Below, one piece after another: positions 3,347 to 36,223 of a DNA stretch of 64,000 nt. This DNA comes from Candidatus Bathyarchaeia archaeon. Its GTDB lineage: Archaea > Thermoproteota > Bathyarchaeia > Bathyarchaeales > Bathycorpusculaceae. Location of the stretch: contig JBEKKK010000001.1 in the NCBI GenBank assembly GCA_050010755.1, positions 1,216,001 through 1,280,000 of the forward strand. Reading direction: 5' to 3'. The notes beneath the pieces were generated by a model that saw nothing but the letters and a program-made list of their open reading frames with translations, did not search any database and was not told the origin of the DNA. The stretch's first letter is position 1; each line of letters starts with the position of its first letter. Position numbers and translations under genes: made by a program.

Positions 3347-4133
3347 GCTGACGGTTCTGAAGATTGGAGGATCCGTCATCACGGACAAGAACGGCGAACT
3401 AACTCCTCGAACTGGAGAAATAGCCCGTTTGACGGAGGAAATACGGAAATCCAACGTCAAAAGGTTGATAATCGTTCACGGAGGCGGAAGCTTCGGTCAC
3501 CCCTCAGCCGAGAAATACGCGATAAAAGAGGGATTGAAAGAGGATTCGCAAAAGATAGGATTCTCAGAGACTCATCACGTCATGACCATGCTCAACGGTC
3601 TGTTCATGGACTCTCTCATCTGGGAAGAGGTTTTGGCGGTAAGCGTTACGCCATCATCATGTATCATCACCGAAAGCGGAAGAATAAAACACTTTGAAGA
3701 CTCAGCCATAAGAGCACTGCTGAACATGGGCTTCATTCCAGTCCTCTACGGAGATGCCGTCGTAGACTCAAAACTAGGCTTCACAATACTTTCTGGCGAT
3801 CAGCTCGTATCAGAACTCGCTATGAGACTCAAAGCAGAACGCATAATATTCGGGGTCGACGTGGACGGCCTATACGATTCCGATCCCAAGATTGAGAAAA
3901 CCGCAAAGCTGTTCAAGCACTTGAATCGAGAAGAACTGAAGGAACTTCAAAACAAGCTTTGCAGGCCGACGGTTCGCGACGTTACAGGTGGCATGTTCGG
4001 CAAAGTCGTGGAACTATTGCCCGCAGTCGAACAGGGAATACCGGTGACCATAATGAATGCGTCGAAGCCAGGTAACATCTGCAAGGTTCTTGAAGGAAAA
4101 CCAGTAGAAGGCACTGTGATAGGGAAGGAATAG
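3318..4133 (+). CDS. ipk: Isopentenyl phosphate kinase
   Basis: LKIGGSVIT, VHGGGSFGH, LSGDQ, DVTGGMFGK; located in the archaeal mevalonate cluster; true start may be TTG near 3333. Confidence 0.92.
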   Translation: MKGSKLNTPELTVLKIGGSVITDKNGELTPRTGEIARLTEEIRKSNVKRLIIVHGGGSFGHPSAEKYAIKEGLKEDSQKIGFSETHHVMTMLNGLFMDSLIWEEVLAVSVTPSSCIITESGRIKHFEDSAIRALLNMGFIPVLYGDAVVDSKLGFTILSGDQLVSELAMRLKAERIIFGVDVDGLYDSDPKIEKTAKLFKHLNREELKELQNKLCRPTVRDVTGGMFGKVVELLPAVEQGIPVTIMNASKPGNICKVLEGKPVEGTVIGKE

Positions 4134-4136
4134 ATC

Positions 4137-5240
4137 TTGGCAGAGAGGACGAAAAGACGGAAAGCAGAACACATAGACATATCTTTGAATCATAACGTAC
4201 AGGCTAGAGAAACGACAACGGGCTTTGAAGACGTGCTACTCGTTCACAGAGCCCTTCCGGAAATAGACAAACAACAGATAGATCTGTCAACAACAGTTTT
4301 CGGCCACAAGTTTGCGGCACCCCTGATTGTGGGCGCCATAACCGGCGGAACGCACGAAGCCACAAAAATCAACGCGACGATAGCCGAAGCAGTGGAAGAA
4401 CTTGGCTTAGGGATGGGAGTGGGCAGTCAACGCGCCGCGCTGGAAGACAAGAAGCTTGAAGAATCATTTGCCGTGGCAAGGAAGAAGGCGCCAACAGCCT
4501 TTCTCGTAGCGAATATCGGCGGGGTGCAACTGGTTAACGGAATAGGCCTCAACAAAGTAAGAAGGGCAATGGAAATGGTTGAGGCGGACGCGTTAGCCAT
4601 ACACCTGAACGCTCTGCAAGAGACGGCCCAGCCTGAGGGGCAAACGAACTTTGCAGGAATCTTGGAAAACGTGACTCGAATCGCCGAAGAAGTGGAAAGG
4701 CCTGTCATTGTCAAGGAAACGGGCGCCGGGATATCAGCTGAGGAGGCAAAGAAGCTGGAGACCGCAGGAGTCAAGGGTATAGACGTTAGCGGGGCAGGCG
4801 GAACGAGCTGGGCTGCAGTTGAATATTACCGTGCAAGAGAACTTAGAGACGCTTCAAGGCAGAGGCTTGGAAATCTCTTCTGGGATTGGGGCATTCCAAC
4901 AGCGGTGAGCCTCGTTGAAGCTTCTCAAACAGTGAGCATTCCTATAATCGCCTCTGGGGGAGTACGAAGCGGAGTGGACGTGGCGAAGTCCTTGACCCTG
5001 GGTTCGAGCTTGGCAAGCCTTTCTCAGCCCGTGCTTCGGGCTGCCGTCAAGGGGACTCTGGAGACGAGGGATACACTGTCGCTTCTGATGGACGAACTGC
5101 GAAACGCGATGTTTCTTACAGGCGCAGCATCAGTCGAAGCTCTTCAAAGTGTCTCAGTTGTCTTGATGGGTAAGACAGCTGATTGGCTGAGAACGAGAGG
5201 GTTCGACGTCGATTCCTATGCGAGAAGAGGAAGGACTTAG
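4137..5240 (+). CDS. fni: Type 2 isopentenyl-diphosphate delta-isomerase
   Basis: RKAEHI, GVGSQR, HLNALQE..QPEG, VKETGAG, GAGGTSW. Confidence 0.96.
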   Translation: MAERTKRRKAEHIDISLNHNVQARETTTGFEDVLLVHRALPEIDKQQIDLSTTVFGHKFAAPLIVGAITGGTHEATKINATIAEAVEELGLGMGVGSQRAALEDKKLEESFAVARKKAPTAFLVANIGGVQLVNGIGLNKVRRAMEMVEADALAIHLNALQETAQPEGQTNFAGILENVTRIAEEVERPVIVKETGAGISAEEAKKLETAGVKGIDVSGAGGTSWAAVEYYRARELRDASRQRLGNLFWDWGIPTAVSLVEASQTVSIPIIASGGVRSGVDVAKSLTLGSSLASLSQPVLRAAVKGTLETRDTLSLLMDELRNAMFLTGAASVEALQSVSVVLMGKTADWLRTRGFDVDSYARRGRT

Positions 5241-12100: not shown

Positions 12101-13647
12101 TTAATTGTAATCTGCTGGCGAGGAAGTAACGTCCCGCTGGTCGGCGTAATGGTTAACGTGGGTGGAACCGAACCATCAGATATATCGCTAAGAAGAACAC
12201 TACCTATTGAAAAATTAAGTGGGGATTCTCCCGCGTTAAAAACATACCAGTCCCAGTTTTCTTGTCCGCCACTCGGGACGGAGATGTTAATCGGGCCGGC
12301 CGTTGCGCCTATTTGGCCTGGTCCAGGAGGCGGAGGAGTGAAAGTAACGCTTACGTAAGCAGAGGCGGCAAGTCCATTGCTGTCAATAGCTGTAACATTG
12401 ATCGTGTATGTTCCCGATTGGGCATACGTGTAGGTCTGCGGGAATCCACCACTGGAAGATTGGCCATCCCCCCACTGCCAGGTTATGCTCGTGATAGTTG
12501 CTCCGTAGGTCGTTGGCTCGGCGGTTCCATTGATAGTAACTGATAAATCGTTGAGACAGGCTGGGTAAAGAACTATTATTGGCTGTCCATTAACTGACAC
12601 GGCGGGCATCAAGCCATTCGGCGGGTAAGATCTTAACCTGACCCAATACACGGTTAAGGTTCCTGAATTATCGCCGCCTCCAGAAAAGAACATCACAGGG
12701 CTGGGCGAAGAGAGGCCTGCGGGGATTGTGTCTGTTTGTATATAGTTGTTTTGGAATGAGCTTGAAGATGATGAGGAAGCATACACGGTGAGGACCTCGT
12801 TGGTTCCATCTGTTAGATATGCAATATTTCCAGCAATACTCCCATTAGTGCTGGTCACTACATCGCCGGTGCCTGCTCCTCCCAAGGCGCCGTTAAATCC
12901 AAAACCCACGACTCCATAGCCTGTGGGTGGACTGATAGAGTAACCACCGCCTATCATGCTGGTGTCCGAAGCTGAAGCAGTATTGGCCGAGCCGTAAAAG
13001 TCAAGCACCCGAGAGGGATCCAAACCATAATTTGAACTTGTTTGTACGTAACAAAATGAACTCCCAGGAACCTGAAGCTGGTTATTTGTCATGATTGGCC
13101 CAGTAGCGTTCCAGCCTGATGGAACATTGGATCCGGCAAAATTCTGGTATAGAGTTGGAAAAACGAATGAGCCAGTATCGTACTCTCCATAGACGGGGCT
13201 AAGCTCAGGTGCTTCCCCGGTTGTCTGGGCGTTGAAGAGATTTGTCGATGTGGATGCGAATCCCATGTAAAGCGTTACGTTAGACAATGCGGGGATTCCG
13301 GTAGCGATGTTTAGCCAGTAGACCGTGTTTGTTGCAGTATTTGTGTTTCCTGATTCGAGCCAACTTGGAATAATTGCCCCGTTGGAATTGAAGAACTCAA
13401 CATTTTGTAGGTCTGGCGCTTCATACGACATGTACGCGGTGCTATCTACTGCTATCATCTGTTGGAACGGAGTCGAAGTCGCTACCAGTTGAGTGTTGAA
13501 AAGCGTAATTGGAACGGAATAGACTATTCCTGCGGGCGGAAAGTCAGCCCTCGCTATTTTGGACGCTACTGCTAACATGCTAACTATGAGCAAAAGCAGC
13601 ATTAGGCTTGAAACAGTCTTCCTAACCAGTCTAACTCCCTTCCTCAA
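9151..13647 (-). CDS. Giant secreted surface protein: signal peptide, DUF2341-like N-terminal region, PKD/Ig-like repeats, CARDB-like domain, C-terminal dockerin
   Basis: About seven repeats of S.VSGGTSPYS(Y/F)QWYLNG...WTFTP; PKD motif W.WGDG; dockerin DITG...DGTVNMRDIALVARAFG / NADFNNDGRIDMKDIALIARHFG. Confidence 0.85.
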   Translation of the reverse strand: MRKGVRLVRKTVSSLMLLLLIVSMLAVASKIARADFPPAGIVYSVPITLFNTQLVATSTPFQQMIAVDSTAYMSYEAPDLQNVEFFNSNGAIIPSWLESGNTNTATNTVYWLNIATGIPALSNVTLYMGFASTSTNLFNAQTTGEAPELSPVYGEYDTGSFVFPTLYQNFAGSNVPSGWNATGPIMTNNQLQVPGSSFCYVQTSSNYGLDPSRVLDFYGSANTASASDTSMIGGGYSISPPTGYGVVGFGFNGALGGAGTGDVVTSTNGSIAGNIAYLTDGTNEVLTVYASSSSSSSFQNNYIQTDTIPAGLSSPSPVMFFSGGGDNSGTLTVYWVRLRSYPPNGLMPAVSVNGQPIIVLYPACLNDLSVTINGTAEPTTYGATITSITWQWGDGQSSSGGFPQTYTYAQSGTYTINVTAIDSNGLAASAYVSVTFTPPPPGPGQIGATAGPINISVPSGGQENWDWYVFNAGESPLNFSIGSVLLSDISDGSVPPTLTITPTSGTLLPRQQITINIIAIVPCYPSEVGSAWNFAVAAIGESQSSAGGGVIFNSGVRISFPVVVLPPLLEPASVDLDFGQSQILSLGPDAFMSSNSYQWYLNGSTVADANDTAYTFAPPSPGLNSFYVVVTDNDSIQAVSNTANVTVNPSLSVSISPLTSNLEVGVDVNGEAMSLTFNSSIIGGTSPYSYQWYLNGSPTGGEWPTYCFEPSSPGFYSVNVAINDSAGAQIMSDTANVTVIAGPSVTISPTSPTINIDQSQTFTCNVSCGTPPYYYELSSGRHNNWWAWYLNVTPNGLDTQLGSGQACTFVPSKELPYGAELPAYFAVTVGIIDSAGVFVYNSTTIMVNPLPPTVSISPASINLDFGQSQTFNSTVSGGTSPYSFQWYLDGVPISGATDATWVFTPTSTGFYTVQVNVTDSVGVQVASNTAPVTVNALPSVSISPISVTLTGEQPQLFNSSVSDGTGPYSYQWYFNGDAVSNATSSTWTFTPKLPGSDTICVVATDSLGVQATSIPANVTVNGQFAFGEIGGSIFNMWESSSTPQNISIGGQATGSWGLLNQGDFTMDYTIYIEARTSIAGTEMPIVTIAQMDGTIAPNSVLYLPVTVSVPDYPSDIGNTWDWYLQAVAQPLSSSSSGVIIQLGTVKILVVTVTSLPSVSVSPASVIVDVGQSELYTSNVSGGTSPYSFQWYLNGALVSGATDATWTFTPNSSGSYTVYLNVTDSLGEIAISNTATVNVNSPLSVSVLPSSVTMDVGQSQTFNSTVSGGTLPYSYQWCLNGSAVPSANFSWAFTPTSAGWYTIYANVTDSVGVQATSNNANVTVNIGTHDVAVTNVASSKTVVGQGFNANITVTVADQGNYTETFNVTAYANTTSVASQNVTLASGTSTTLTFTWNTTGFAYGNYTLSAYAWPVPGETNTANNNCTGGWVIVSIPCDITGPKGWPDGTVNMRDIALVARAFGSMPGSSNWNPNADFNNDGRIDMKDIALIARHFGSTDP

Positions 13648-13949
13648 ACTCCAAATTAGCTTTCCGTCATAAGAAGTTTGTGAAAGAGTCTTCCATCATC
13701 ATCCACGTCGATACTATCAAGACGTGACCTAGAGAGAACGGTTGAGGCGAAGCAAGGAAAAAAGAGTTCGAATGGAAATAATAACTTAGCGCTTTTATAT
13801 GCCGCCCTCTGCCCTGTATTATATGTCTGCTATTCTTGGCCCGAAAGGCATGGACGAGAACGAGCTGAAATAATACCTAGAAATTATTTCTAAGCGTCAA
13901 GTCCTTGGGGTACTGTACTGATTTAGAAACACCGTTGCTAAGTTTCCGA

Positions 13950-14419
13950 TTATTTGAAGAGGTCTGGCTTGTTTTCTTCCCATGAGCCAGAAACGTAGTC
14001 GCTCGTTGAGCCGAGGCTTTTGAGTCCCCCGAACTCTTTAAGTTTCCAGGCGTCGCTCTTGAATATCCCTTTGCCATATAGGTTTCGCAGCAGCCGCGTA
14101 GCCAGTGTGGGAAGAGGTCAACCGTAAGTTTGAGGATCTCCTGTGGACGCTTTCTCTGAAGGTGCTCATGCCAGTGGAGCGTTCCGTTAGGCGTAGCGGA
14201 AGGGAAAACGTAGCAGTCTCTGTCAGGGACCATCTAACGCCATTCATGAACAATCATGCTTAACTTTGCCATTGGTCCAACAAGCGGAAGAATTATCTCT
14301 TTCCGCAATTGTCCATGCTTCAAAGGCTGCACGTTGGCCAGATAAATCATGTCAGGGAAGCTTTCGAACTGGATTTTTTTGAAGGTAATAGCTTCTGAGA
14401 TTCTGCAGCCTGAAAGAAA
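13950..14419 (-). pseudogene. Tyrosine recombinase/integrase remnant (catalytic domain)
   Basis: Manual translation gives SGCRISEA (box I Arg), in-frame TAG at 14234-14236, FPHWLRG (HxLR), a frameshift near 14065, then KLKEFGG...STSDYVSGSWEE (catalytic Tyr region) to TAA at 13950. Confidence 0.75.
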
Positions 14420-14598
14420 TCATAAGAGCCTGGGGAATGAACCCCGAGGAAATCTTGACGAGAAAAGAGTTCTCAGAACCACACGCAACCTACACTTCCG
14501 GCGAACATGAAGAACAGGCAATCAAAGAACTTAGCAATGCACTTAAGGAAATGATGCATAAGGAGTTATTGGATGGTTCAAGGAAAGACGGGAACTAA
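14410..14598 (+). pseudogene. C-terminal fragment of a second gene, probably an integrase tail
   Basis: Open frame LKEIIRAWGMNPEEILTRKEFSEPHAT...KELLDGSRKDGN* with no upstream start; resembles C-terminal extensions of Bathyarchaeia integrases (from recall, not searched). Confidence 0.5.
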
Positions 14599-14623
14599 AA
14601 TGTATCGAATATCTCCTAGGAAC

Positions 14624-15235
14624 CTATCCGTTTTCGGTTCGAGTATCCTCCACTTTAGGAAAATTCTCAAAAACTTGTTTTAACTCTCTCTTCATTGATG
14701 CTGTGTCTTGGCTTAGCCCAAAATAATCAGCGAAATATTCGGTTGTTCTGAGGACCAATGAACGTCCGTTTCTTTCGCTGGCAATCAAACCCATGTCTTT
14801 AAGCTCTTTTATGTGGCCGTAGGCATGGTGACCGCGCACATCAACGACTCTCTTCTGCACTATAGGTTGCCGGTATGCTATGTACGAAAGCGTCTTCAAT
14901 GGACCGACTGAGAGCAGCGGTCTATTGATGAATCTTCTGACGTTCGGCGTGAAATCGCTTTTTAGCTGCATGACAAATCTCTCATCTTTTAGTTTCAGGA
15001 TTTCGAGGGCTGTGTTCCTGTTTAAGTAGTCTTGAATCAGTTTTTCCACAACCTTTCTTGTCCTAGCCTTTGACCTTGTCTTCAGAACCGAGCACAACTC
15101 GTTCATGTCCAGTGGGTGCCCCGCGACGTATAATGCAGCTTCCACAAGCACTAGGTCATGCTTCGGTTTGCTTTCTTTTTCATCTTGTCCAACTTCCACG
15201 TTGGAGTCGACTGGCAGTTTCTCAGCTTCTTGCAA
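14624..15235 (-). CDS. scpB: SMC-Scp complex subunit ScpB
   Basis: VEAALYVAG.PL, LKTLSYIAYRQPI, TTEYFADYFGL; downstream of smc-scpA. Confidence 0.93.
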   Translation of the reverse strand: MQEAEKLPVDSNVEVGQDEKESKPKHDLVLVEAALYVAGHPLDMNELCSVLKTRSKARTRKVVEKLIQDYLNRNTALEILKLKDERFVMQLKSDFTPNVRRFINRPLLSVGPLKTLSYIAYRQPIVQKRVVDVRGHHAYGHIKELKDMGLIASERNGRSLVLRTTEYFADYFGLSQDTASMKRELKQVFENFPKVEDTRTENG

Positions 15236-15914
15236 GATTTAACTCTCCAACCGTGATGTAAATCTCCTCTGTCTCCTCGTTCTGCCACAGGTTTATCCTT
15301 CCCTCTTGGGCGAGAAAGAGCAGAAGGATGAATGTGCGGACGGCCTCCAGTCTTCCAACATCCTTTACGAGGGTTGAGAGTTCTATCAAGCCTGCGCCTT
15401 TCACTCTCTCGGACAGAGATGCGTAGAGTTTTTCCATCTGGAGTTCGATTTCCATCAGGTACAAATCCAGTTGTGGAAGAATCTCTGACGGTGTCGGCAG
15501 AACGTTTTGTGCAATCGTTTTTTCTAAGTGTATCAATTTTTCGCCCTTCAACACGTCATCAAGAACTTCTAGCAGGTTTTTTATCGTTGTTGATGTGAGT
15601 TCGTGTCTGAGGGGCAGAAACAGGGGAGGGGGCAAAAAGTCTAGTGGTCCCTTTGGCGGTGGCGGAGGCTCCTCTAGCTTGAGTAAGAGTCTGGACTTCA
15701 TGAGGTATATTAGGGCTGAAGAATCAAGGGCCACGCCGGAGGCTCTGAAATCGACTTGTCCTGTCTTCTCCATGCGTTCAAGGAATGATGTAAGCAAATA
15801 GGCAATGTTGACGTTCCATGGTGCAAGCTTCTCGAGTTTGTTAAACTCGAAGAGGATGTTCCATGGGGGAAGCAGGTAGAAAGGTTTTCTTATTGCCGCA
15901 GGCGTGGAAATCAG
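15222..15914 (-). CDS. scpA: Kleisin ScpA (likely CTG start overlapping the smc stop)
   Basis: Frame stays open upstream of the listed ORF through PPWNILF..LEKLAPWNVNIAYLL; C-terminal winged helix FILLLFLAQEGRINLWQ. Confidence 0.88.
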   Translation of the reverse strand: MISTPAAIRKPFYLLPPWNILFEFNKLEKLAPWNVNIAYLLTSFLERMEKTGQVDFRASGVALDSSALIYLMKSRLLLKLEEPPPPPKGPLDFLPPPLFLPLRHELTSTTIKNLLEVLDDVLKGEKLIHLEKTIAQNVLPTPSEILPQLDLYLMEIELQMEKLYASLSERVKGAGLIELSTLVKDVGRLEAVRTFILLLFLAQEGRINLWQNEETEEIYITVGELNLARS

Positions 15915-18900
15915 TCATGCGCCTCCAGGAATTTTGCTGACACGACGTTCGAGTTTCCGTCGCGCATGTAAACGCCGTACACTTTTTGGGCTTTGTTCAC
16001 CATTTCGGGCTTCAGTGTGATGACTATGAACTGGGTTTTGTCCGCCTCTTCCAAGAGCAGATCGGCCAGTTTCGTCACGTGCAGTGCGTCAAGGTGCGCG
16101 TCTACCTCGTCGAGAATGTAGAACGATGCGGGTGTGAACTCTCTCAGGGCGAATATGAATGCGACGGCTGCTACTGAGCGTTCGCCGCCGCTGGCTCCAC
16201 CCACTACTATTGAGGGCTTGTTGGGAAACGTCACAATCATGTCTATTCCGCCTTGGAACGGGTCTTCAGCGTTTTCGAGTGTCAGGACGGCGTGTCCTCC
16301 TCCTGTGACTTTTGAGAAGTATTTGCTCAAGTTCTGGTTTATTTTGTCGAATGCTTCTGTGAAGACTTTGCGTTTTTTGCTTTCGATTTCGTCCATGAAC
16401 TGCACTATTGCTTGTTTTTCTTTTTCAAGCTCATTCATTCTCATCGAAAGTTCTTTGTAACGCGAAATCTGATCTGCGTAATGAGAAAGTGCAAGTTGGT
16501 TGACCGCGCCTATTCTTTCCAGTTCGAACTGCATCATTCTTATGGAAGTTTCGGCCTCTTCAACCTGTTTCGGCGCGACGATCAGCGGTTGATCGTAGCC
16601 GAGAAGTTTGAGTTGGTTTCGGTTCTGTTCAAGCCGCAGCTGAGAAGTTTGAACGTTCAGTTGAAGCTGATTCACCAGTCTGTCAACCTGCTCATATTCG
16701 GCGTCGAGTTTCTTGAGTTCCTTGTCTATGTCGTCAATCTGAGCCGTGAATTTCTTCGATTCTTCTCTCGCTGAGAAAACGCTCTTCGAAAGTTCAATCC
16801 GGCTTTTTTCGAGTTCTCCCAATTCCTGCTTCAGTGATTCTCTTTCTCTCAGTGCTTCTTCGACTTCTTTCTCGACTCTTCCCTGTTGCTGATTGACTTT
16901 AGAGACTTGTATCTTTGAGTTTTGATATCCAACTCTTAACACGTTGTCAAATTGCGATTGAAGCGTTGACTTTTCGGTCTCGGTGGCGCCGAGCTTCTGT
17001 CTCAAGGTGATTATTTCCTCGGCGAGTTTTTCTCTCTCAACTTCCATTTCCTGAATGTGTGCTGGATCTGCCTTCTTTCTCAAGGAAGCCAATTCGGTTT
17101 GGAGCTTCCGCATTTCCTTTTGGATTGTGCTCCTCTCAGCCCTGTGTATCCACATCTGCGATTTTTCATTCTCTATTTCTTTGTCGCTTCGAGTAACTTC
17201 GTGATCAATTCGTTTGACGTTTGATATTGTTCTTCTGATGTTTCTTTTGACTCTGGTTATCTCCCGTTCCAGAGTGGTGATGCTTTCTGTCAGGCGGGCG
17301 ATTTCGACGCGAGTCTTGGCGATTTCCTCTTCGAATCCGGTGATGTCGCTTCCTCTTCTTGAGAGGTGCTGTTGCAGCGCGTTGACTGCTTCGTCTAGGT
17401 TCTTGATGGCAAGTTCGCTCGGGATTATCGTTGAGAAGTCTATTGGAGCGCGGTAGTATCCGCTCTCAAACGCGCCGCCTACCTCGTAAACGTCCCCGTT
17501 GACGGTGACTGCGCGGCAGCCTTGGGCTGAGAGGGCTAGGGCGGTCTTGTCGTCTGAAACTATTAGCGTGTCTCCGAAAACAAAGTTGATAGCTGGCTGG
17601 AAGTTTTTCTCAAATTTCATGAAGAGTGAAGCTGCCCCGTTTATTCCTTCTTTTTCAGGAATTTTTGTTGGTTTGGCGTTCGTTGCTTCTTGTAGGGGGA
17701 TTATCTTTATCCGTCCTAGCTTCATTTTTCTGAGTGTCTCTGTGCATGTGAAGGCTGAATCAAGATCTCTTACCACAAGTGCGTCCAGCCATCCAGTGGC
17801 GGCTGCTTCTATTGCGCGCTGAAAGTTCTTGTCAATCTTTATCACGTTGCGCAGTCTTCCGTAGACGCCTTGGATTACGCCGAGGTCGCCCAGTTCTTCT
17901 ATGCTCCTTAACGCTTTTTCTTCTGCTGCGACGGTTTCTGCAAGTTCCCTTTGTGTCACGAACTCTACGACTGCTTCACGGGCTGAATCGGCGATTTTTC
18001 CAGCCTCTTTTATTTCTCTCTCTGCAGCTTCTCTCTGTGCCATTCGTTTTTCGCGGGTTCGTTCTAGGTTTTTCAGCTGTGTCTTTTGTTCTTTCTGGAC
18101 TTTTTCTAGTTCAAGGAATGACTTTTCCAGTTCACTCAATGTCCCGGAGAATCGCGTTTTTCGGTCTTGCAGATCTCTAAGTCTTCTGGCGCGCACTCTG
18201 ATTGTTGTCTGGTTTTTCAGGTACTCAGATCTTAGGAATGCGAGCCTTTTGTAGTCATCCTCGAGTTTAAGCTCGATTTCGCGAATTCTCTTGCTGTTTT
18301 GGCCGAGGTTTTCCCAAAGGTGAACGGTTTCTTTTGCGAGAGCATCGTGTTCATCTTGTTTCTGACTTGTTTGGTAGGAGATTCTTTCTTTTTCATTAAT
18401 CAACTGTCTGATTCTCAGACGATTTTCATGTATTTCTTTTCGAATCGACTGGTACTGTCCCACATTGTTTTCTCTTATCTGCTTCAGGCCTTCTAGGCTT
18501 GTTTTGCCAGAGCTGATTCTTGAGGCCATTTCTGTCAGTTTTGACTTGAGTTCTCCGATTCTCACCTGCACTTTCAGGACTTGTGAGCCGCCTTCTTCTA
18601 CTATTTCTGAGCTGAGCCTTCGCCATTCGCCTTCGACTGCTCTTCTTTTCGATCTACGATCGTCCCGCAGTTGTCTCAGTTTTTCGAGTTTGCCGCCGAT
18701 TTTTTCTGCTTCCGAAGAAGTTTCCTCAACCTTTTTCTGTGTTTGCGCCATTTCGTACGAGATTTTTACTGTTTCAAACTTTTTTATCTCACCGTGAATG
18801 AAGTTGGCTCTCAATAGTTCGTTGCGCTCTCTTTCCAGATCATCCAATCTTTTCTGGACTTCATCTATTCTTCCCATGGCCGTGCGGATGGAAATGTCTG

Positions 18901-24666: not shown

Positions 24667-26169
24667 TTGCTGAAGGGAGAGAGAGGAGTCAGTTTGTTTA
24701 GGAAGACTGTTTCTGCATTAATGCTATCTTTACTGGTAATAAGCACGTTGACATTGGCATTTAGGGTTCAAATAGTCAAGGCAGATGGTGGAACTATTTA
24801 CATTAACGCTGACGGTTCTATCACGCCAGCAGGAGCTCCCATCACAACCTCTGATAACATAACGTACATGTTCACAGGCAATATTTGCTATCCAGCTTAT
24901 TGGGGAATCATTGCCGAGAGAAGCAACATTGTGATAGATGGAAATGGGCACACGGTGCAAGGAGACCAGAGCGGGTACAATTGGCATCAAGGATTCGGGT
25001 TAAGTCTCACGGACATTAACAACATCACAATAACGAACACTACCATAGTAAGCTTTGATGTCGGAATATATCTTACCGATTCGAACAACAGTGTCGTTTG
25101 TGGAAATAGCGAAATAGATAATACTGATTATGGCATCTGGCTAGATTCGTCGTTTAACGATATAATATCCGGAAACTCCGAAACGAACAATGGATTTTGT
25201 GGCATTGAAATCTTATATTCCTCAAACAATATCGTGTCTGGAAACAATGCAGTAAATAATCAACATGGGATAGTCGTCGCTGGCAATTCAAACAACATAA
25301 TCGCAAACAACATAACAGCAAACAGTCTAAATGGAATTTCTATTGCAGGAATCGGCAACGAAATAGTCGGAAACAACATAACAGAGAATGGAAACGGCAT
25401 GTATGGGTACATCGGAGAGGGCATGTTGGTCGAAGAATCTTCAAACAACATATATTACAACAACTTCGTTGACAACATGTACCAAGTTCTTGATATTTCG
25501 AGGTTTTTCCCTGGCTTTACTTCCTTAATCAACAATTGGGATTCTTTCTACGCAGGAAATTACTGGAGCGACTACACGGGCATTGATGCAAATCTTGATG
25601 GGATAGGCGACTCACCCCTAGTGATATATCCGAACAACATAGATCACTATCCACTTATGAACCAAGTGCAGTGGCCACCGCTTAACATAACAGTCACCAG
25701 TGTTTTGCCTTCCAAAACTGTTTGTTACCAGGGCTCAAACATAAGTGTAAACGTCACTGTCAGGAATGGAGACTTCCCTGAAGAAGTGTGGGTCACAGTT
25801 TACAGTGAGATCAGCAACATGAGCATTGGCACATACCCAGCATGCTTGGAAATAGGACAGAGCTATACCTTCAAATTCAATTGGAACACTAAGAACGTGC
25901 AATGCCAAAATTACACATTAACAGCAGTTGCGACAATCCCAACAGGCTCGAATGCCCTTTCTGATGGGAACATAAGTGTCAGGCTAGTTGGTGACGTAAA
26001 CGGAGACGGGAGAATCGATCTTAGAGACACAGCACTGGTAGCCCGAGCCCTCGGCTCCACTCCGACCAGTGCTAACTGGAACCCATCTGCTGATATTGAC
26101 GGTGACGGCGTGGTGAACATGCAAGACATCACGCTGGTAGCCAGGCACTTCGGACAACACTACCCCTAA
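24667..26169 (+). CDS. Secreted NosD-like parallel beta-helix protein with CARDB-like domain and C-terminal dockerin
   Basis: Signal peptide, GI.L..S.NN.I.GN repeats, GNYWSDY.G.D.N.DGIGD, dockerin GDVNGDGRIDLRD / ADIDGDGVVNMQD. Confidence 0.85.
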   Translation: MLKGERGVSLFRKTVSALMLSLLVISTLTLAFRVQIVKADGGTIYINADGSITPAGAPITTSDNITYMFTGNICYPAYWGIIAERSNIVIDGNGHTVQGDQSGYNWHQGFGLSLTDINNITITNTTIVSFDVGIYLTDSNNSVVCGNSEIDNTDYGIWLDSSFNDIISGNSETNNGFCGIEILYSSNNIVSGNNAVNNQHGIVVAGNSNNIIANNITANSLNGISIAGIGNEIVGNNITENGNGMYGYIGEGMLVEESSNNIYYNNFVDNMYQVLDISRFFPGFTSLINNWDSFYAGNYWSDYTGIDANLDGIGDSPLVIYPNNIDHYPLMNQVQWPPLNITVTSVLPSKTVCYQGSNISVNVTVRNGDFPEEVWVTVYSEISNMSIGTYPACLEIGQSYTFKFNWNTKNVQCQNYTLTAVATIPTGSNALSDGNISVRLVGDVNGDGRIDLRDTALVARALGSTPTSANWNPSADIDGDGVVNMQDITLVARHFGQHYP

Positions 26170-28057: not shown

Positions 28058-29752
28058 ATGAATTATGCGTGGAAGGGACATAGGATGCGTAGAGTTGTTT
28101 TAGTTTCGCTCACAGTTCTTTGTTTGCTTTTCGTATCGTCAATAGCGGGATTGGTTCAGGTAGTTAGGGCTGATATTGGAACCATCTACATTAACGCTGA
28201 TGGAAGCATAAGCCCATCAACTGCTCCCATCTATACCACAGATAGTATCAATTACACTCTAACTGGCAACATTACCACTGATGTTGACGGAATTATGATT
28301 GAGAGGGACAACATCGTTTTTGATGGCGCAGGCTTCACCATCAGTTCTTTTGGGGTCTACCTTGACCAAGTGACTGGCGTGACAATCAAGAACATAAACA
28401 TAATCGGCTATGATTATGGCATCCACCTCCTGTCCTGCTCCAACACTAACATTATTGATAGCAACGTCTCCTCACACGTCCAAACACCTCAAAACCCAGG
28501 AGATGGAATCTACCTTGAAAACAGTTCCAACAATAACGTTGCTGGCAACAACGTTGGACCAAACATGGCAACTGGGATATATGTAGATTCGTCCTCTAAT
28601 AATGATAGCATCATCAACAATAGCCTCGGAAACAACTATGATGACATTTGGCTCAACACCTCCTCTGGAAACATGGTCAGTGGCAACTACGTATGGGGAG
28701 GTGAGAGATTTGGCGTCAAGCTCGCAGATTCATGCAACCACAACGCCATAACGGACAATACCGTGCTTTACAACAATGATGAAGACATAAGCCTAGACAG
28801 TTCGAATTATAACATGTTGTCTGGTAACAACGTAACAGGAGGTAGTGTAGGCATCCATTTAGACAGTTGTATCAGTGACACCCTGCTTAACGACAGAATA
28901 ACAGACACGGCTTATGGTGTCCTCCTTGGGAGTTCCTCCTACAACGCCTTGATTGACAACAACATCACATATTCCAGCGTTAGCGCGATACATCTCGCCC
29001 TTTCCTCCAACAACACGTTGCAAGACAATGACTTGGCAGATAACACCAATGGCATTTATCTAAATCCTTCTTACAACAACACTTTCTGTGGTGGCGAAGT
29101 TTCGAACAACGAGTACGGCGTCCGACTTACGTATGACTCTTCTGGCAACGCATTTTATCGCATGAACTTTGTTAATAATACAATCCAAGCTATTTGCGGC
29201 CAAAATGCAAATGTGTGGGATGATGGTAGGGAAGGTAACTACTGGAGTGATTATAATGGAACTGACAACAATCAGGACGGAATAGGAGATACACCGTACG
29301 TCATTGATGAAACCAACGCAGACCATTATCCTTTGATGGGGGCGTTCTCAGACTTCAACGTTGCACAGGGTGCTGATGTTCAGGTTGTAAGCAATTCAAC
29401 GGTTTCTGATTTCCAGTTCAACAGCACAGCTTTATTGTTCGATGTTACTGGCGAGAATGGCACGACGGGCTTTTGCAGAATAAGCTTTCCAACAGCATTA
29501 ATCAACGGAAACCTAACAGTCTTCGTCAACGGAACAGAAGTACCCTACAATCTTCTGCCAGAGTCTAATAGTACTGAAAGCTATCTCTACTTCACTTACA
29601 GCCACTCAACAAAACAGGTCACAATTATCCCAGAGTTTCCAACATTCATCCTCTTTCCCTTATTTATTATAGCTACGCTAATAGCAATAGTATTTTGCAG
29701 AAAGCCATGTCTTACAAAAGGCTCTAGTCAAGCTGAAACACAGAAATCTTAA
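28058..29752 (+). CDS. Secreted NosD-like beta-helix protein with PEF-CTERM-like C-terminal anchor
   Basis: Beta-helix repeats, GNYWSDYNGTD...DGIGDTPY, C-terminus IIPEFPTFILFPLFIIATLIAIVFCRK. Confidence 0.85.
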   Translation: MNYAWKGHRMRRVVLVSLTVLCLLFVSSIAGLVQVVRADIGTIYINADGSISPSTAPIYTTDSINYTLTGNITTDVDGIMIERDNIVFDGAGFTISSFGVYLDQVTGVTIKNINIIGYDYGIHLLSCSNTNIIDSNVSSHVQTPQNPGDGIYLENSSNNNVAGNNVGPNMATGIYVDSSSNNDSIINNSLGNNYDDIWLNTSSGNMVSGNYVWGGERFGVKLADSCNHNAITDNTVLYNNDEDISLDSSNYNMLSGNNVTGGSVGIHLDSCISDTLLNDRITDTAYGVLLGSSSYNALIDNNITYSSVSAIHLALSSNNTLQDNDLADNTNGIYLNPSYNNTFCGGEVSNNEYGVRLTYDSSGNAFYRMNFVNNTIQAICGQNANVWDDGREGNYWSDYNGTDNNQDGIGDTPYVIDETNADHYPLMGAFSDFNVAQGADVQVVSNSTVSDFQFNSTALLFDVTGENGTTGFCRISFPTALINGNLTVFVNGTEVPYNLLPESNSTESYLYFTYSHSTKQVTIIPEFPTFILFPLFIIATLIAIVFCRKPCLTKGSSQAETQKS

Positions 29753-29855: not shown

Positions 29856-30061
29856 CGCGCGCTGGAAGATTTCTTCACAAACCTCTTAAATGAAAAAGTG
29901 TTGATTTGAAGTTTGGAGAGAGGCGCGCGCGCCATACTTATCAGTTTCCTCTTGACAAGCAGTTTAATGCACGTGCGAGCCCTCGTTCATCTTTTTGGGT
30001 TCTGTTAACTTGTCGGGTCTTAAAGAAGTCTGTTAACTCGCGGGGCTTTTTTGGTATTTTC

Positions 30062-30598
30062 TTATTTCAATGGAGGCAACCTGTCCGATGTCGGGTGTTC
30101 TGCTATGAGTTGGTTTATCTTGCCCAGCCAAGCTTGTCGGTCTTTTAAACCCACTAACCAAAGATCGAAGTTTATTGTTTTCCCCTCTTTTTTCGGTACT
30201 TCAAATCTTATCTCTAAGTGTTTCGCTGCTAACCCTTTCTCTTGGACTGATTTGGCGTATTCTAAAGGTATTGCTAAAACCACATTTTTCTTTTTCCTCA
30301 AACCCTTTCTGTACGACAGAATCAGGTTTTTGTTAGTGAGCGTCAGAGGTTTAGTGGCAACCAATTTTTGGGTTATGTCCGCCATGTTTCCACATTCAGC
30401 TTCTTTGCCATCTTGAGTATACTTTGCAACCTGCAATGACCTCGTGTCCTTTACCAAAAAATGATGTTGCAAATAATCTCCCAAAGGGACTAAACTTAAG
30501 GCAAACGATTTTCCAATGTTTCTCTCAGGTTGAAGAATAACCCCCGCGTTGTCAGCTTTTATTATCGTTCTTTCTTGCGATGAGAACAGATCATCCAT
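30062..30598 (-). CDS. Hypothetical passenger protein with PH/GRAM-like C-terminal half
   Basis: LTLTNKNLIL...IPLEYAKSV...W...I pattern; lies inside the TIRs. Confidence 0.6.
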   Translation of the reverse strand: MDDLFSSQERTIIKADNAGVILQPERNIGKSFALSLVPLGDYLQHHFLVKDTRSLQVAKYTQDGKEAECGNMADITQKLVATKPLTLTNKNLILSYRKGLRKKKNVVLAIPLEYAKSVQEKGLAAKHLEIRFEVPKKEGKTINFDLWLVGLKDRQAWLGKINQLIAEHPTSDRLPPLK

Positions 30599-30684
30599 AA
30601 TAGAAAATGTATGATCGAATTTAAAATCCTTTGGATGGCAAGTTCTGATAGTTCCTAGATTCTCAGGAAAGTTCCTATCCTGCT

Positions 30685-31860
30685 TTAAGAACTCGTTTCA
30701 AACCTTCGATGCTGACTTGCCTTTTTGATTAAGGATATCCATTCTGCCTTGTCAGTTTGAACATTTGCTTTTTGTGCAGGGGTCTTTCCGTTCAGTGCCA
30801 TGTGTAGTCTTATAAAATTGTAATAGATTCTCAGACCATCCATCATTGTCTGTGCCGTTTCCATATCGTCAAGCCCTCTCATAACCTTGTTTCTCTGCCT
30901 AGTCGTTCCGTGCAACCTTTCAACCATATTGTTGTTCGAACGGTCTCTAATGTTTGGAATCCTAACGTGCCGTGTCCTCGGCCCCTTCTGAGTGAAGAAC
31001 TCTTTCGGTATTGCGTCTTGATAGGCTCTTAACCCGTCTGTCACTATTGCCATTGGTCTTGTCTTTGAAAGGCTAGAAGCTTGAGCCAACACTTTCCTAG
31101 CATCTGCAATTTCCCTCTTCTCCGTTATCTGACTCGCCAGCCAAAAACGACTTTCATTGTCAATAACATTCCATGCCCATCTCAAGCTTTCGTGATTGTC
31201 CAAGTCTTTAATGTTCAAGGCCATTTCGTCACTGTGCCAGACTCCGCTAACTCGTGGCACTAGCTGATCGCAGTATTTTTTCATCATTGAAACGTACTTT
31301 CTTATCCACTTTTAAATAGCAACATGGCTAACTTCTACTCCGTAGAACTGTTTTATGTGGTCAACGATTGCTCTCATGCTGATACCTTTGAAATAGAGGT
31401 CAAGCGCAATGGTCACGGTTTCAGGTGTGGCCTTCATCCTCTCGAATCCTTCGTCAACAATGAATTTTCTCTTACAATCGTTGCAGAAGAACCGTTGAAC
31501 CTTTCCGTTCTGAGTAGTTCTGTATCCTCTCTTCACAATGTTCTCGGAGCCACAGAATTTACAAACCGACTCTGGTGATTCTATTTCTTTGCATAGGTTC
31601 TCACCCTCTTCCTCAGAAGGAGATACAGCTTGCTCATTTAACCTAATCTGTTCAACCGCATGAATATGCTTGCAAGCTACATGGTTGAAAACAAAATTGG
31701 GGCACTCGCATTTCCATTCAAGCCCCTCTCTTACAACAATGTAGTGTTTTCCTTCTTCGGTCTGTGACCATACTCGATAGGTTGAATCGCTTATCTTGTC
31801 AACCTTGCCGTGGGCTAGAAGAGAGTACGCACGGAGTTTGTGTGTGTTTGAGGTTCTCAT
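30685..31860 (-). pseudogene. IS6/IS240-type DDE transposase with N-terminal SWIM and Zn-ribbon; one in-frame stop
   Basis: SWIM CECP...CKHI; CKFC...RFFCNDC; W.SDEM, WNVID, IVTDGL.AY, NNMVERLH; TAA at 31312-31314 inside SHVAI*KWIRKY, same frame either side. Confidence 0.88.
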
Positions 31861-31989
31861 TGGTCTACACCTCGGTATATACCAATATACACACTAGTAT
31901 ATAAAAATATCTACACCAATGTATATACTTAGATACAAACCTTAAATATAAGTTAGGTCGATACCATTGTATATGCGCTGGTATGAACT

Positions 31990-32181
31990 ATGGTATTGCA
32001 AGCAGCAACCAAAATAAACAAGGCAACTGGGTCACGGCATACCATTTATTTGAGAACCGAGTTACTCAACGACAGTAAATTTCCTTTCAAAATAGGGCAG
32101 CAATTGATAATTAGAATAGATGGCGATCGGTTGATCGTTGAAGCCAGCAAACCAAAAGAGCGTGATAGAGAAAATGAATAA
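31990..32181 (+). CDS. AbrB/MazE-like small DNA-binding protein
   Basis: HTIYLR.ELL.DS.FPFK.GQ.LIIRIDGDRLIVE swapped-hairpin pattern; divergent from the transposase. Confidence 0.72.
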   Translation: MVLQAATKINKATGSRHTIYLRTELLNDSKFPFKIGQQLIIRIDGDRLIVEASKPKERDRENE

Positions 32182-32190
32182 ACGTCAGCG

Positions 32191-33372
32191 ATGGTTTATT
32201 ACTGTGTCGATTTACCAAGACTGGGGGGACTAAGATTGCTTTCGGGGCCTCACTCTACATACGTTACCAAATTTGAGTCAAGAAAGAACTTCATGCTGCA
32301 TCTAGAGAGCATGATGATTGCTGCACAGGAGAAAGAAGAGGAAGAAGAACTTGAGGAAGAGACACGTGGCCATCCAACAGAATTGAAGACGTATTATATG
32401 GAGACCAACAGCGGTTTGCCAAAAACATTGGAAACATCTCCTCTGAAAGTCTTTCCTATTGCCACGACTCTCTCAGATGTCAATGTACTTCGATTAGAAC
32501 ATGGTAAACATTCAGCAATATTCTACTTGGATGCGGCAGATCCACGTTTCTTGCTGTTATACACGAACGGTGTTGCAACGACAACTGATAGACTTTTCAG
32601 GTATCTTGTTGAAACTCCAGCAAACAGATTTGACAGGATTTGGCTGCCATCAAAGACTCAAGAGAAAATATCGCACTATTCAGGTAATGCTTTTACAGGT
32701 TTTGGTCTATTGTTCGATGACCTTTTCGTTGCCCACGACACAAGGAATGTGCCTATTGGTGAGTTATCAATGAGCGTTTCTGGAGTCAGTTCCTCCAGAG
32801 CTCTTGATGCTCTCAACAGTGATAAGACTTTGAAAAAGGCTGTCTGTTATTCGAAGATACGTGTTGAAAGGGGGAGCGAAGAATCATATGTTGCTGATGA
32901 AATCAAATACAATGGCAGAATAATTACTAAAATTGGACAGTCGATTGACGATCATGTTAGCCTTGTGGAAATCATTAGGAAGGAATACAGAGGTCTGATT
33001 GAAAACATTGAAAGGAACAGTCTGGGCACGAAAGAGGTTGAAGGAAGAACGCTTGTTGAAGGAGAGGCGTTTGAACTTGAACTGAATCGAGAAATTCTAG
33101 ACTTGGACAGATTCGCGGAACGACTCGCAGATGGTGATAGACCGTTCAGATTATGGGGAATGGTAAACAACATTTCAAGAGATATGCGCCAAGTCATCGG
33201 ATTAGATTTGCATACTGGTGACTCTATCAATCTTGAAATCATGCCCTCTCTAATTAGAGTCTATATTCCCAGAGGCGGTTGTGGCAACACTGTTTTGAGG
33301 CTCTGGGTGAATCTTCAACATAGTTTTGACTCAGAAGTAAAACTCAATGAGGAGACCGATTTTGCAGCCTAG
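32191..33372 (+). CDS. Uncharacterised 393-aa passenger protein
   Basis: Long ORF; conserved-looking C-terminus PFRLWG...DLHTGD.I.LEI...IRVYIP.GGCGNTVLRL..NLQH. Confidence 0.8.
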   Translation: MVYYCVDLPRLGGLRLLSGPHSTYVTKFESRKNFMLHLESMMIAAQEKEEEEELEEETRGHPTELKTYYMETNSGLPKTLETSPLKVFPIATTLSDVNVLRLEHGKHSAIFYLDAADPRFLLLYTNGVATTTDRLFRYLVETPANRFDRIWLPSKTQEKISHYSGNAFTGFGLLFDDLFVAHDTRNVPIGELSMSVSGVSSSRALDALNSDKTLKKAVCYSKIRVERGSEESYVADEIKYNGRIITKIGQSIDDHVSLVEIIRKEYRGLIENIERNSLGTKEVEGRTLVEGEAFELELNREILDLDRFAERLADGDRPFRLWGMVNNISRDMRQVIGLDLHTGDSINLEIMPSLIRVYIPRGGCGNTVLRLWVNLQHSFDSEVKLNEETDFAA

Positions 33373-34240
33373 TTTACATACCAAACTCATGAATTGCATA
33401 ATCGGAATGTGTAAGAGAGATAAGAAATGGATTACAGTTTTGCGTGAACTTGGCTACCAACCATATCTGATCGAACAGAGTATTAGGACATCAAGTGGTT
33501 CAAAAGTCAAAACGGACATAATTGCATCATCCGCACAATTGATACACTCTCTTGTTTTTGAAGTTAAAGGCGGGATTACTATTCAACAGGATCAACTAGA
33601 GAGATATGCTATGATTGATCCAGAAGATTTGTACAGATGGGTAGCACTTCCCGCGTTCACACGTCAAACTTTTCGATTCGACTGGTGCATAAGTGATTGG
33701 GAAGAAAATCACCCAATAATTGCGGCCTTGGTCAAAGATGTTCCAATCATTACTTTCGGCACAGAGCATATTGAAAAAACTGGCCAATTCCACAATCCTC
33801 GGCTTAACAGCGTGTTTAATCAACCGATTAGTCTAATTGGCAAATCGGCACCTACGCTATACTATCCTTTCAGTGAATATGACCCGCAAGCCTACATTGC
33901 GCGTTTTGTCATTCAAGGTTTGCTCCAAGTTGCATCTAAGAAACCAAGGAACGAAATCAGCGTTTTTGACGAAAATCTAATCACACGGGACGAAATACTG
34001 AAGTATATCTTTAATCCTGTTTTTGATGCCTTGTCAAAAGACCATCAGGGACATTTGAAGGATAAGATCAAAGAAGTGGTTCGCTGGATTATGGCAGATC
34101 AGAAGATGAAAGAGGCTTTTGGTTCGATTGAACAACGAGGCGGTTATAAGCTTAAACGACCTCTTGACAAACTCCGAAAGGCATCAAACCAATTTTTGGC
34201 TAACCTAGAAACCCAAGGAAAATTGGATACATTTCTCTAA
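33347..34240 (+). CDS. Predicted PD-(D/E)XK nuclease-domain protein
   Basis: KTDIIASS...LVFEVKGG...QQDQLERY (D...ExK...QxxRY); overlaps the upstream gene. Confidence 0.7.
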   Translation: MRRPILQPSLHTKLMNCIIGMCKRDKKWITVLRELGYQPYLIEQSIRTSSGSKVKTDIIASSAQLIHSLVFEVKGGITIQQDQLERYAMIDPEDLYRWVALPAFTRQTFRFDWCISDWEENHPIIAALVKDVPIITFGTEHIEKTGQFHNPRLNSVFNQPISLIGKSAPTLYYPFSEYDPQAYIARFVIQGLLQVASKKPRNEISVFDENLITRDEILKYIFNPVFDALSKDHQGHLKDKIKEVVRWIMADQKMKEAFGSIEQRGGYKLKRPLDKLRKASNQFLANLETQGKLDTFL

Positions 34241-34394
34241 AAATCCACCCACCAACAAAAAGCCCCTTTGGTTAACATGAACACTTTCAAGCCCATGAAA
34301 GACCCGAAGAGTTAACAGAATCTCTTTTTGAAACCTTTATTAGCATGATAACCTGGAAAAATAAATCGCAAACATAATTCAGAAACGCGTTGGC

Positions 34395-35119: not shown

Positions 35120-35676
35120 TTGACTTTGGGCAAGGCGGACATGGTTCTGAAGGGAATTGAGGCAATAGCCGAAAAAGAGTCCCTGCCAATAATAGGACGA
35201 GACAGGGGACAAGTTCTCATCAAAGTCATACGCCAAACAAGACCCAGAAGGATACTTGAAATCGGAACCTTGGTTGGTTACTCAACGATTAAGATGGCAA
35301 AAGAACTTGACGCAAAGGCGTGTTTGACTACGATTGAAACCCACTCTGGTAGAGCCAAACTGGCACGCGAAAACATAGAAAAAGCAGATGTTCGCCCAAA
35401 AATAGACGTGATCGTAGGCGACGCCATCAAAGTCATTCCGAAGCTGACTGAAAATTCCACATAGTCTTCATCGACGCTGCCAAGGAAGAATATTTCGACT
35501 ATCTGAAGATGGTCGAAAAAAAGCTCCACAAGGGAAGCGTAATCGTCGCGGACAACGTTGGAGTCTTGACAGATCAAATGAAAGAATATCTAGACTACGT
35601 AAGGTCATCACGCAATTACAAGAGCGAATACATACCCTTCGGAAAAGACGGAGTCGAAGTAAGCGTAAAGCTATAG
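35120..35676 (+). pseudogene. Class I SAM-dependent O-methyltransferase, frameshifted
   Basis: ILEIGTLVGYS; frame breaks at the A-run near 35451 and resumes IVFIDAAKEEY...VIVADNV...DGVEVSVKL* (TAG 35674-35676). Confidence 0.8.
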
Positions 35677-35737: not shown

Positions 35738-36223
35738 TTTTCGGAACAAGCATTGTCGCCATCATCGCGGTTTACACTGCAACATTACGCTGCAACATTA
35801 CAACGGATGTAAAGAAAAAAAGAGAAAGGAGCACGCTCATTCGGTGAAATCGAAATCCAACGTGCACTCAACCTAAACTCACGCAGAGAGGCCGACCTTA
35901 ACGCGCGCGCCATTTTCAACTTTTTTCGGAACACTGCACGATACGTGGAGATTTACGCTTACACATTACAAAGCAACATTACATCTGACGTAAAGAAAAA
36001 AAGGGGAGGGGACACCCTTCACCATAGAAATCTAGCATAACGTAAGACGCAAACCCGAAGAAAAGACGCGACCTCAACTCGCCAGCACCAAGTTTCAGCC
36101 TTTTTCGGAACACGCACGCGCAACATGGAAATCTTACATTGCAACATTACACGGCAACATTACATCTGATGTGTGTGAAAAAAAGGGAGGGGGGCACCCA
36201 CAGCGGTAAACCAGAGCGCGCGC
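35738..36223. repeat. Three degenerate tandem units of about 180 bp
   Basis: TTTTCGGAACA at 35738, 35923 and 36102, each followed by three TTAC at 13-bp period (mostly CAACATTAC), an A-run and a G-rich tract. Confidence 0.85.

Follow-up and report, generated by a model that had tools for sequence, protein, structure and literature searches.

The 64,000-nt window analysed here (positions 1,216,001 to 1,280,000 of the forward strand of contig JBEKKK010000001.1, assembly GCA_050010755.1) is part of contig 1 of a Candidatus Bathyarchaeia archaeon genome that comprises 2.19 Mb in eight contigs and is 93% complete. Near its middle lies a transposon carrying two overlapping genes, which we call A and B, with B encoding a candidate nuclease. 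This conserved nuclease pair, drawn from two Pfam families without an assigned function and predicted to form a complex, is a real finding. Near-identical DNA to the locus was found in peat and wetland metagenomes, with no RNA data set among those listed, and its closest named relatives are Bathyarchaeia metagenome-assembled genomes (MAGs).

A reading of this DNA from its letters alone (hereafter the sequence-only reading) had described two overlapping open reading frames (ORFs) of 393 and 297 codons, AT-richer than their surroundings and with no methyltransferase nearby, and each of these points stood up. Coordinates and lengths agree, the pair has a G+C content of 41.2% against 47.6% for the window (placing it in the lowest 1.6% of 2,050-nt windows), and no DNA methyltransferase occurs among the ORFs of at least 90 aa between 20 and 46 kb. 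The overlap measures 26 nt if B begins at its ATG (33347, with the TAG stop of A at 33370–33372) and 11 nt if it begins at TTG, the start in its database entry; database versions of both proteins start later, giving A a length of 378 or 359 aa and B one of 292 or 277 aa.

The same reading could name no family for A. We judged membership from precomputed database labels, together with a comparison of our own profiles with the homologous pair of Methanocaldococcus jannaschii. PF25924 labels all 50 A homologues listed and PF27326 labels 22 of 23 B homologues, and Pfam 38.1 names these families MJECL33 and MJECL32, after adjacent ORFs on the large plasmid of M. jannaschii. Our profiles match the overlapping plasmid genes MJ_RS09135 (E = 1.9e-71) and MJ_RS09130 (E = 3.6e-13), the M. 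jannaschii MJECL32 protein being longer than B of the window (438 aa, with an insertion). A does, then, have a family name, as does B, and both families are uncharacterised. PHROG families of unknown function also match A and B (1.9e-45 and 3.1e-16). Clustered at 50% identity, family A yields 697 clusters in a set of 1.84 billion representatives; the best 150 of these 697 are all 171–442 aa long, and no fused or longer forms of A were found, which the search tool itself rates as weak evidence. Neither protein matched a known defence model or a housekeeping family, as the sequence-only reading would have it: local Pfam and NCBIfam searches gave no significant family for A or B, and PADLOC-DB v2.0.0, which is without systems described after 2023, gave none for A, B or the small ORF upstream of them at E values up to 1. 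A sequence search of solved structures with A and B returned nothing below E = 0.5.

The N-terminal nuclease motif proposed for B is real, and 23 full-length homologues of archaeal and bacterial origin conserve it. E43 and Y87 occur in all 23, K74 in 22 and Q83 in 19, while position 57 is D in 19 and E in four and position 72 is E in 18 and D in five. In the best structural model of B (mean predicted local distance difference test score, pLDDT, 78; predicted template modelling score, pTM, 0.78), an N-terminal alpha/beta domain precedes a C-terminal helical bundle, in keeping with the helical C-terminus that had been proposed. Strands 37–47, 53–62 and 67–71 are followed by helix 81–88, which puts E43 in the first strand and D57 in the second, with E72-x-K74 following the third and Q83-xxx-Y87 within the helix. 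This is the layout of the PD-(D/E)XK superfamily, whose core runs alpha-beta-beta-beta-alpha-beta and in which strand 2 bears the D and strand 3 the (D/E)xK, as seen in one confident model of five. The RecB/Cas4-like subfamily is recognised by a QxxxY motif in the helix after (D/E)xK together with a sequence-profile match; B has Q83 and Y87 but matches no Pfam or NCBIfam nuclease model. The best Foldseek matches were 3dnx and XisH, the FdxN-element excision factor, at probability 0.99 and with all E values above 1e-3 (2.6e-3 to 6.8e-3). A second structural aligner gave the XisH-family entry 2okf (Z 7.4), NucS (6.9), Upx and SdaI (both 6.7), AF1548 (6.5), BsmI, Bax1, Cdn1, Can2 (6.0), Card1 and HamA (5.7). 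These fold matches cover residues about 1–170, the best of them about 10–150, and each Z is middling, yet the list is coherent and agrees with the sequence motifs. We therefore read B, on its model and motifs, as a probable active PD-(D/E)XK nuclease with RecB/Cas4-type motifs, whose substrate would presumably be DNA.

The model of A (pLDDT 82, pTM 0.82) consists of an acidic N-terminal helix followed by three alpha/beta domains resembling the TATA-binding protein (TBP). Residues 62–271, holding the first two of these domains, align with CENP-L (Z 7.4 over 186 residues, root mean square deviation, rmsd, 5.3), RdgC (Z 7.2 over 187 residues, rmsd 5.0) and Iml3 (Foldseek E = 2e-4, Z 5.9–6.1), and residues 277–390 align with YgiF and Med18/20 (both Z 7.1), CENP-N (Z 6.4) and TBP (Z 6.3). 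Among models of viral proteins, A matches TBPs and several phage RdgC-like proteins, which carry the annotations RdgC, recombination-associated protein or exonuclease. According to PMC11077077, RexA, RdgC, Iml3 and Chl4 constitute one structural family of non-specific DNA binders, and the appearance of most of that set among the modelled fold matches of A is suggestive.

Complex prediction, one of the checks that the sequence-only reading had proposed, came out clearly for A with B: the interface score ipSAE was 0.90 in all three runs, against 0.00 for the best of three controls. A score at this mark was reached by 116 of 157 solved complexes and by two of 215 mismatched pairs. The runs agreed in at least 95% of contacts, with partner pLDDT of at least 86. 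On the A side the predicted interface is formed by the C-terminal domain (278–361), and on the B side by the ‘YYPF’ motif (167–172), helices 183–200, 219–228 and 265–284, and residues 38–42 beside E43. Invariant or near-invariant residues at this interface include W322, E349, R356 and Y358 of A and P169 to Y172 (‘YYPF’) of B, so that several of the most conserved positions in both families are explained by their place in the predicted interface. Conservation reaches beyond it, however: among the 17 residues of A that are invariant in 29 homologues, E71, D114, R119, D148, H341, N366 and R370 lie outside. The predicted complex supports binding of A and B to each other.

The two genes also keep company widely and in fixed order. 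Our main survey covered 32 loci in species-representative genomes; loci are labelled L0xx and genomes G0xx, G000 being the window's own genome and L004 lying on contig 29 of G021. In 28 of the 32, B follows A immediately and on the same strand: 25 by a first count plus L007 and L027, where B is cut by a contig end, and L029, where fragments of both genes remain. In the four others, A reaches the contig end (L028), only a fragment of A is present (L034), a partial A stands without B (L035), or only 419 nt are left after A, with a weak B-like match upstream instead (L030). The 25 include two loci in which B is split in two (L009, L010) and one with a B remnant (L016). More broadly, B is split, truncated or a remnant beside a full-length A in five Nitrososphaeria loci (these three, L011 and L013), which reflects repeated loss of the nuclease or else frameshifts introduced by faulty assembly.

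Hosts of the pair span Bathyarchaeia, Nitrososphaeria, methanogens, Nanohaloarchaea, Altiarchaeales, Acidobacteriota, Planctomycetota, Chloroflexota and Bacillota. The distribution is sparse: B is present in two of 41 relatives, and A in four of 401 genomes sampled from the phylum (about 1%), every intact A in the latter having B next to it. A single Cenarchaeum genome carries four copies; we considered these as products of recent transposition and rejected the idea, as they are only 42–52% identical. A divergent second locus in a Nitrososphaeria genome (G075, contig 1, 1384701–1385904, minus strand) has a 550-aa frame that matches positions 212–299 only of the A profile and adjoins a B-like gene (E = 9e-24), which hints, from sequence, at a wider superfamily with a different A-type subunit.

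Carriage by mobile elements takes several forms. The pair occurs on 10 plasmid records and is adjacent on those of M. jannaschii and Halobacterium. In L005 (a Bathyarchaeota MAG, 9977–17012) it lies inside an apparent head-tailed provirus, with head scaffolding, major head and neck genes just downstream and a large phrog_12710-matching protein upstream, and in L036 it lies downstream of prophage lysis genes and beside FtsK-like and Rep genes. Many copies are chromosomal and have no recognisable mobile-element genes within three genes. No match to A or B was found by tblastn against GenBank phages; scanning IMG/VR with the B alignment likewise gave none, and with the A alignment two loci, one of which (L037) was too weak to use.

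In the window, A and B are demonstrably moved by a transposon, as had been proposed: they lie within a 4,325-bp IS6-like element (29998–34322) bounded by terminal inverted repeats and a perfect 8-bp target-site duplication (Table 1). The terminal repeat arms are 22 nt long and 91% complementary and lie two bases inside the duplication, and the subterminal repeats at the two ends (30029–30051 and 34257–34277) pair with each other. A pattern scan for the transposon end gave three matches where 0.48 would be expected by chance. Public contigs from four peat or wetland sequencing runs span both junctions of the insertion, and one contig of run X6 has unrelated sequence directly before 29998, the inferred left end; no empty-site joint occurred among the contigs of these four runs.

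Table 1. Features of the transposon that carries A and B, in window coordinates.
Feature	Position	Strand	Remarks
Target-site duplication, left copy, TCTTTTTG	29990–29997		8 bp, identical to 34323–34330
Left end	29998–30051		terminal inverted repeat 30000–30021 and subterminal copy 30029–30051
178-aa cargo ORF, function unassigned	30062–30598	-	in variable slot between left end and transposase
IS6-like DDE transposase	30685–31860	-	SWIM and zinc-ribbon N-terminus, DDE_Tnp_IS240 core; in-frame TAA at 31312–31314
AT-rich divergent intergenic region between transposase and the small ORF–A–B operon	31861–31989		inverted repeat 31862–31882 / 31921–31941
63-aa ORF, possible AbrB/MazE-like regulator	31990–32181	+	ends 9 nt upstream of A
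Gene A, Pfam MJECL33 (PF25924)	32191–33372	+	393 aa; three TBP-like domains; acidic C-terminal domain predicted to bind B
Gene B, Pfam MJECL32 (PF27326)	33347–34240	+	297 aa; N-terminal PD-(D/E)XK domain, C-terminal helical bundle
Right end	34257–34322		subterminal repeat 34257–34277 and terminal inverted repeat 34299–34320
Target-site duplication, right copy, TCTTTTTG	34323–34330		perfect 8-bp direct repeat

With its IS240-type DDE transposase (DDE_Tnp_IS240), short terminal inverted repeats and the 8-bp duplication that is typical of the IS6 family, the element has the hallmarks of that family. It differs in the extra SWIM/zinc-ribbon N-terminus of its transposase, in its three to four passenger genes and in the subterminal repeat at each end; because of the passenger genes it is a transposon rather than a plain insertion sequence. 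The transposase scores above the Pfam DDE_Tnp_IS240 cut-off (60.3 versus 27) and below that of the NCBIfam IS6 equivalog model (78.8 versus 125), and for the latter reason we regard it as a divergent member. Its single TAA splits the gene into ORFs of 182 and 200 aa; L004 has an intact 401-aa transposase, to which the product is 83% identical, one TAA falling inside the match, and because of this stop the copy in the window is probably non-autonomous.

L004, from a second Bathyarchaeia MAG of the same family and a different genus, is a sister element of 5,807 bp with matching architecture. Its 23-nt ends match each other exactly, and a perfect 8-bp duplication of its own (GAAAATGG) flanks it at offsets equal to those in the window. 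From the transposase stop to the right transposon end, where homology ceases (30674–34320 of the window), the DNA of the two elements is 77% identical, and this stretch takes in A and B as well as the small ORF and the transposase. Where they part is the slot that separates the left end from the transposase, which seems to collect different passenger genes. In the window this slot holds the 178-aa cargo ORF, which has no Pfam, NCBIfam or PHROG match, and in L004 a 526-aa N6/N4 DNA methylase fused to an Mrr-type nuclease domain (2975–4555, minus strand), although this domain may alternatively be an inactive NA-iREase1-like one. The 63-aa ORF upstream of A is 73% identical in protein sequence to an ORF in the equivalent position of L004 and is not conserved in the other loci; its sole family signal is a weak, below-cut-off match to MazE_antitoxin (E = 0.047). 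The intergenic region before it is a putative promoter region. A third, decayed copy of the transposon, L040, lies in the window's genome (contig 1, 550461–553694; locus positions 521–1757), where it adjoins an SRP54 gene. It keeps the repeats of both kinds, terminal and subterminal, along with a transposase remnant of 79 aa and a 253-aa helix-turn-helix protein (DUF7347/HTH_20), has no target duplication at the expected offsets and is without A and B. Another IS6-like transposase copy in the same genome stands alone.

Around the transposon we noted a few further features. Just to its right, a short fragment of a small-molecule O-methyltransferase (35120–35464) is the only methyltransferase match between 20 and 46 kb; it is a 114-aa ORF that matches the first half of Methyltransf_3 only (profile positions 27–116 of 204) and may be a truncated or frameshifted gene. 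To its left, 24667–26169 and 28058–29752 encode NosD/beta-helix surface-type proteins, one with a dockerin domain. Two pairs of diverged direct repeats, each of about 70% identity, occur upstream of a PAS histidine kinase gene (35771–36199, about 250 nt) and near 10 kb (9677–11090, about 500 nt).

Across loci, no third gene is conserved beside the pair among 263 clustered neighbouring ORFs, except that the two sister elements have their transposase and small ORF in common. In six of 31 loci, genes of restriction or other defence systems occur within three genes of the pair, a raw count that is suggestive only. The genes concerned are the methylase–Mrr fusion inside the sister transposon (classed as type II), type I S subunits, a type I R subunit, a type IIG/DISARM-like methylase with HKD-Snf2 and Mrr, PifA with PDC-S09, and PDC-M19A with PDC-M19B. 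Two further PADLOC matches were excluded because they look like generic ATPases: IetA (an RFC-like AAA protein, L004) and SspH (an FtsK-like protein, L036). The pair of the M. jannaschii plasmid is accompanied by VapBC, an EVE-domain protein and an ATP-dependent endonuclease, and in L022 HicA lies beside the pair.

What might such a pair do? We put at even chances the view that A and B form a two-subunit nuclease immunity or exclusion module carried by mobile elements, here as transposon cargo. We rest this view on the fixed pairing, the predicted binding, the conserved nuclease motif with its fold matches, the sparse and mobile distribution, the defence-type neighbours and the four diverged Cenarchaeum copies. 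B would be the effector, with a metal-dependent PD-(D/E)XK DNA nuclease domain followed by a basic helical domain, and A the regulatory or sensing subunit, its first two TBP-like domains arranged as in RdgC and CENP-L/Iml3. The acidic C-terminal domain of A would dock on the helical domain of B and on the strand beside its active site, holding B in the complex until A recognises foreign DNA or a protein of the invader and licenses cleavage, with destruction of the invader or abortive self-damage as the outcome. Methylase-independent, modification-dependent (type IV-like) restriction would be one sub-case. More tentatively, and with somewhat less than even confidence, we suggest an undescribed immune system of archaea and bacteria in which a three-domain TBP-like, RdgC/CENP-L-like sensor of invading DNA gates a RecB-type nuclease, travelling as cargo of IS6-like transposons, plasmids and viruses. 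It would be an archaeal counterpart of RexAB-type prophage exclusion with a nuclease in place of the membrane effector.

The sequence-only reading had likewise proposed a defence system, and its pairing, conserved motif, transposon carriage and, by prediction, binding all held, whereas the defence function itself we still infer from context. Several observations weigh against such a role. All fold matches of A have Z below 8, those to RdgC, CENP-L and Iml3 falling short of what the tool counts as clear, and according to the tool values of 7.2–7.4 at an rmsd of about 5 Å are common for unrelated models. RexA matches A with a Foldseek probability of only 0.54 (E = 2.6e-2) and fell outside the 50 best rows of a second look. 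A is acidic (median pI 5.67 and net charge −10 among 29 homologues) and for that reason fits a DNA-binding sensor less well than an inhibitor. For B, the remaining four of five models reach a mean pLDDT of only 51–63. As to context, the genes around the transposon in the window are housekeeping genes, including a thermosome gene, SAM synthetase and the PAS histidine kinase, the nearest genes in 25 of 31 loci are unknown or housekeeping, and the count of defence neighbours is a raw one. The pair in L005, just upstream of head genes, is not in the classic moron position. Finally, a literature search on MJECL32, MJECL33, the Pfam identifiers and six accessions found nothing relevant, supplementary tables aside.

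The strongest rival is that the pair is an addiction (toxin–antitoxin-like) module in which B is a nuclease toxin and A its stoichiometric inhibitor, stabilising the transposon, plasmid or provirus by killing cells that lose it, with any anti-virus effect secondary. We consider this unlikely. Binding is predicted, and the gene order would suit a type II toxin–antitoxin system, the putative inhibitor gene coming first and overlapping the next. In the window A is acidic and B basic (pI 5.31 and 9.15), and the predicted interface contacts B at 38–42, beside the catalytic E43. Plasmid carriage, the VapBC neighbour in M. jannaschii and HicA in L022, the small AbrB/MazE-like ORF upstream in the window's lineage, and the five Nitrososphaeria loci with a broken B and full-length A all point the same way. 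However, at about 370 and 290 aa both proteins exceed the usual size of type II partners, and the pI of B ranges from 4.4 to 9.4 across the family, so that charge complementarity between A and B is not general. The broken B genes, moreover, are in MAGs, a few of which are whole-chromosome assemblies, and sequencing errors may have caused the frameshifts. The polar residues of A that are invariant in all 29 homologues outside the interface suggest that A does more than mask B.

Alternatively, A and B may be a DNA-processing module that serves its element in recombination, replication restart or resolution, with an RdgC-like A and a structure-specific nuclease B. This is what the alignment of the first two domains of A with RdgC and the phage RdgC-like proteins would suggest, as would the XisH family, the repair endonuclease NucS and Bax1 among the fold matches of B, and the position of the pair beside provirus structural genes in L005 and beside FtsK-like and Rep genes in L036. 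We think it quite improbable, nonetheless: no recombinase, helicase or replication gene is conserved among the 263 neighbouring ORFs, the many chromosomal copies have no recognisable mobile-element genes close by, and multiple diverged paralogues in a genome, together with presence in about 1% of the phylum sample, would be unusual for such a role. That the pair assists transposition of the IS6-like element, B acting like TnsA of Tn7 (a nuclease with a restriction-enzyme fold, cutting a single strand) and A serving as adaptor for the target or a DNA end, accords with its place beside a DDE transposase within the inverted repeats of two related transposons, but is hardly credible, being largely refuted by the distribution of A and B: an IS6-like transposase lies near the pair in only three loci (the window, L004 and, as a 61-aa fragment, L006) and is missing from the other loci, plasmids and proviruses, while the decayed L040 keeps both ends without the pair and a separate transposase copy in the genome stands alone.

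Little of archaeal immunity has been charted outside CRISPR and restriction, and we know of no genetic systems for Bathyarchaeia or Nitrososphaeria in which defence screens were run. Should A and B prove protective, they would add a new sensor fold (TBP/RdgC-like) to the nuclease-based systems and provide a clean natural case in which an archaeal transposon transports a defence module, two independent insertions each being marked by a target duplication. Even as an addiction or DNA-processing module, they would give a first function to two Pfam families of unknown function. A direct test is feasible, since the pair measures about 2 kb, has homologues on plasmids of cultivable Bacillota and haloarchaea, such as a Lysinibacillus irui plasmid and pSTJ001 of Halobacterium hubeiense, and offers clear catalytic residues.

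Set beside systems already described, the pair resembles several in part. Restriction–modification of types I–III is set apart, as no cognate methyltransferase was found in the transposon, within 20–46 kb of the window or conserved across loci; the methylase–Mrr fusion of L004 is separate cargo and not part of the A–B unit. RnlA–RnlB, of the toxin–antitoxin/anti-phage kind, is likewise a two-gene, overlapping system carried by mobile elements, and the repeated N-terminal domains of RnlA match A (Z 4.9–5.4, rmsd 10–14 Å). In RnlA, however, the TBP-like domains are fused to a HEPN RNase toxin, while here they lie on the non-nuclease subunit, and the effector B has a DNA-nuclease fold. B shares its PD-(D/E)XK fold class with HamA of Hachiman (Z 5.7), SduA of Shedu (Z 4.9), Upx (Z 6.7) and Can2/Card1 (Can2, Z 6.0), and the pair shares with them the logic of effector plus regulator, although it has no helicase, CARF domain or NTPase and its partner subunit differs in fold. 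The nearest candidate parallels for A are RdgC and CENP-L/Iml3, matched by its first two domains, CENP-N/Chl4, matched by its C-terminal domain, and, weakly, RexA, with Z values in the range that the tool describes as common. A differs in showing no sequence similarity (no RdgC family match), in having a third TBP-like domain and in being acidic. With lambda RexA, A shares carriage by mobile elements beside an effector gene. The effectors part company here: RexB is a membrane protein, and no RexB-like membrane partner was found for A, whose only conserved partner, B, is a predicted soluble nuclease composed of a nuclease fold and a helical bundle.

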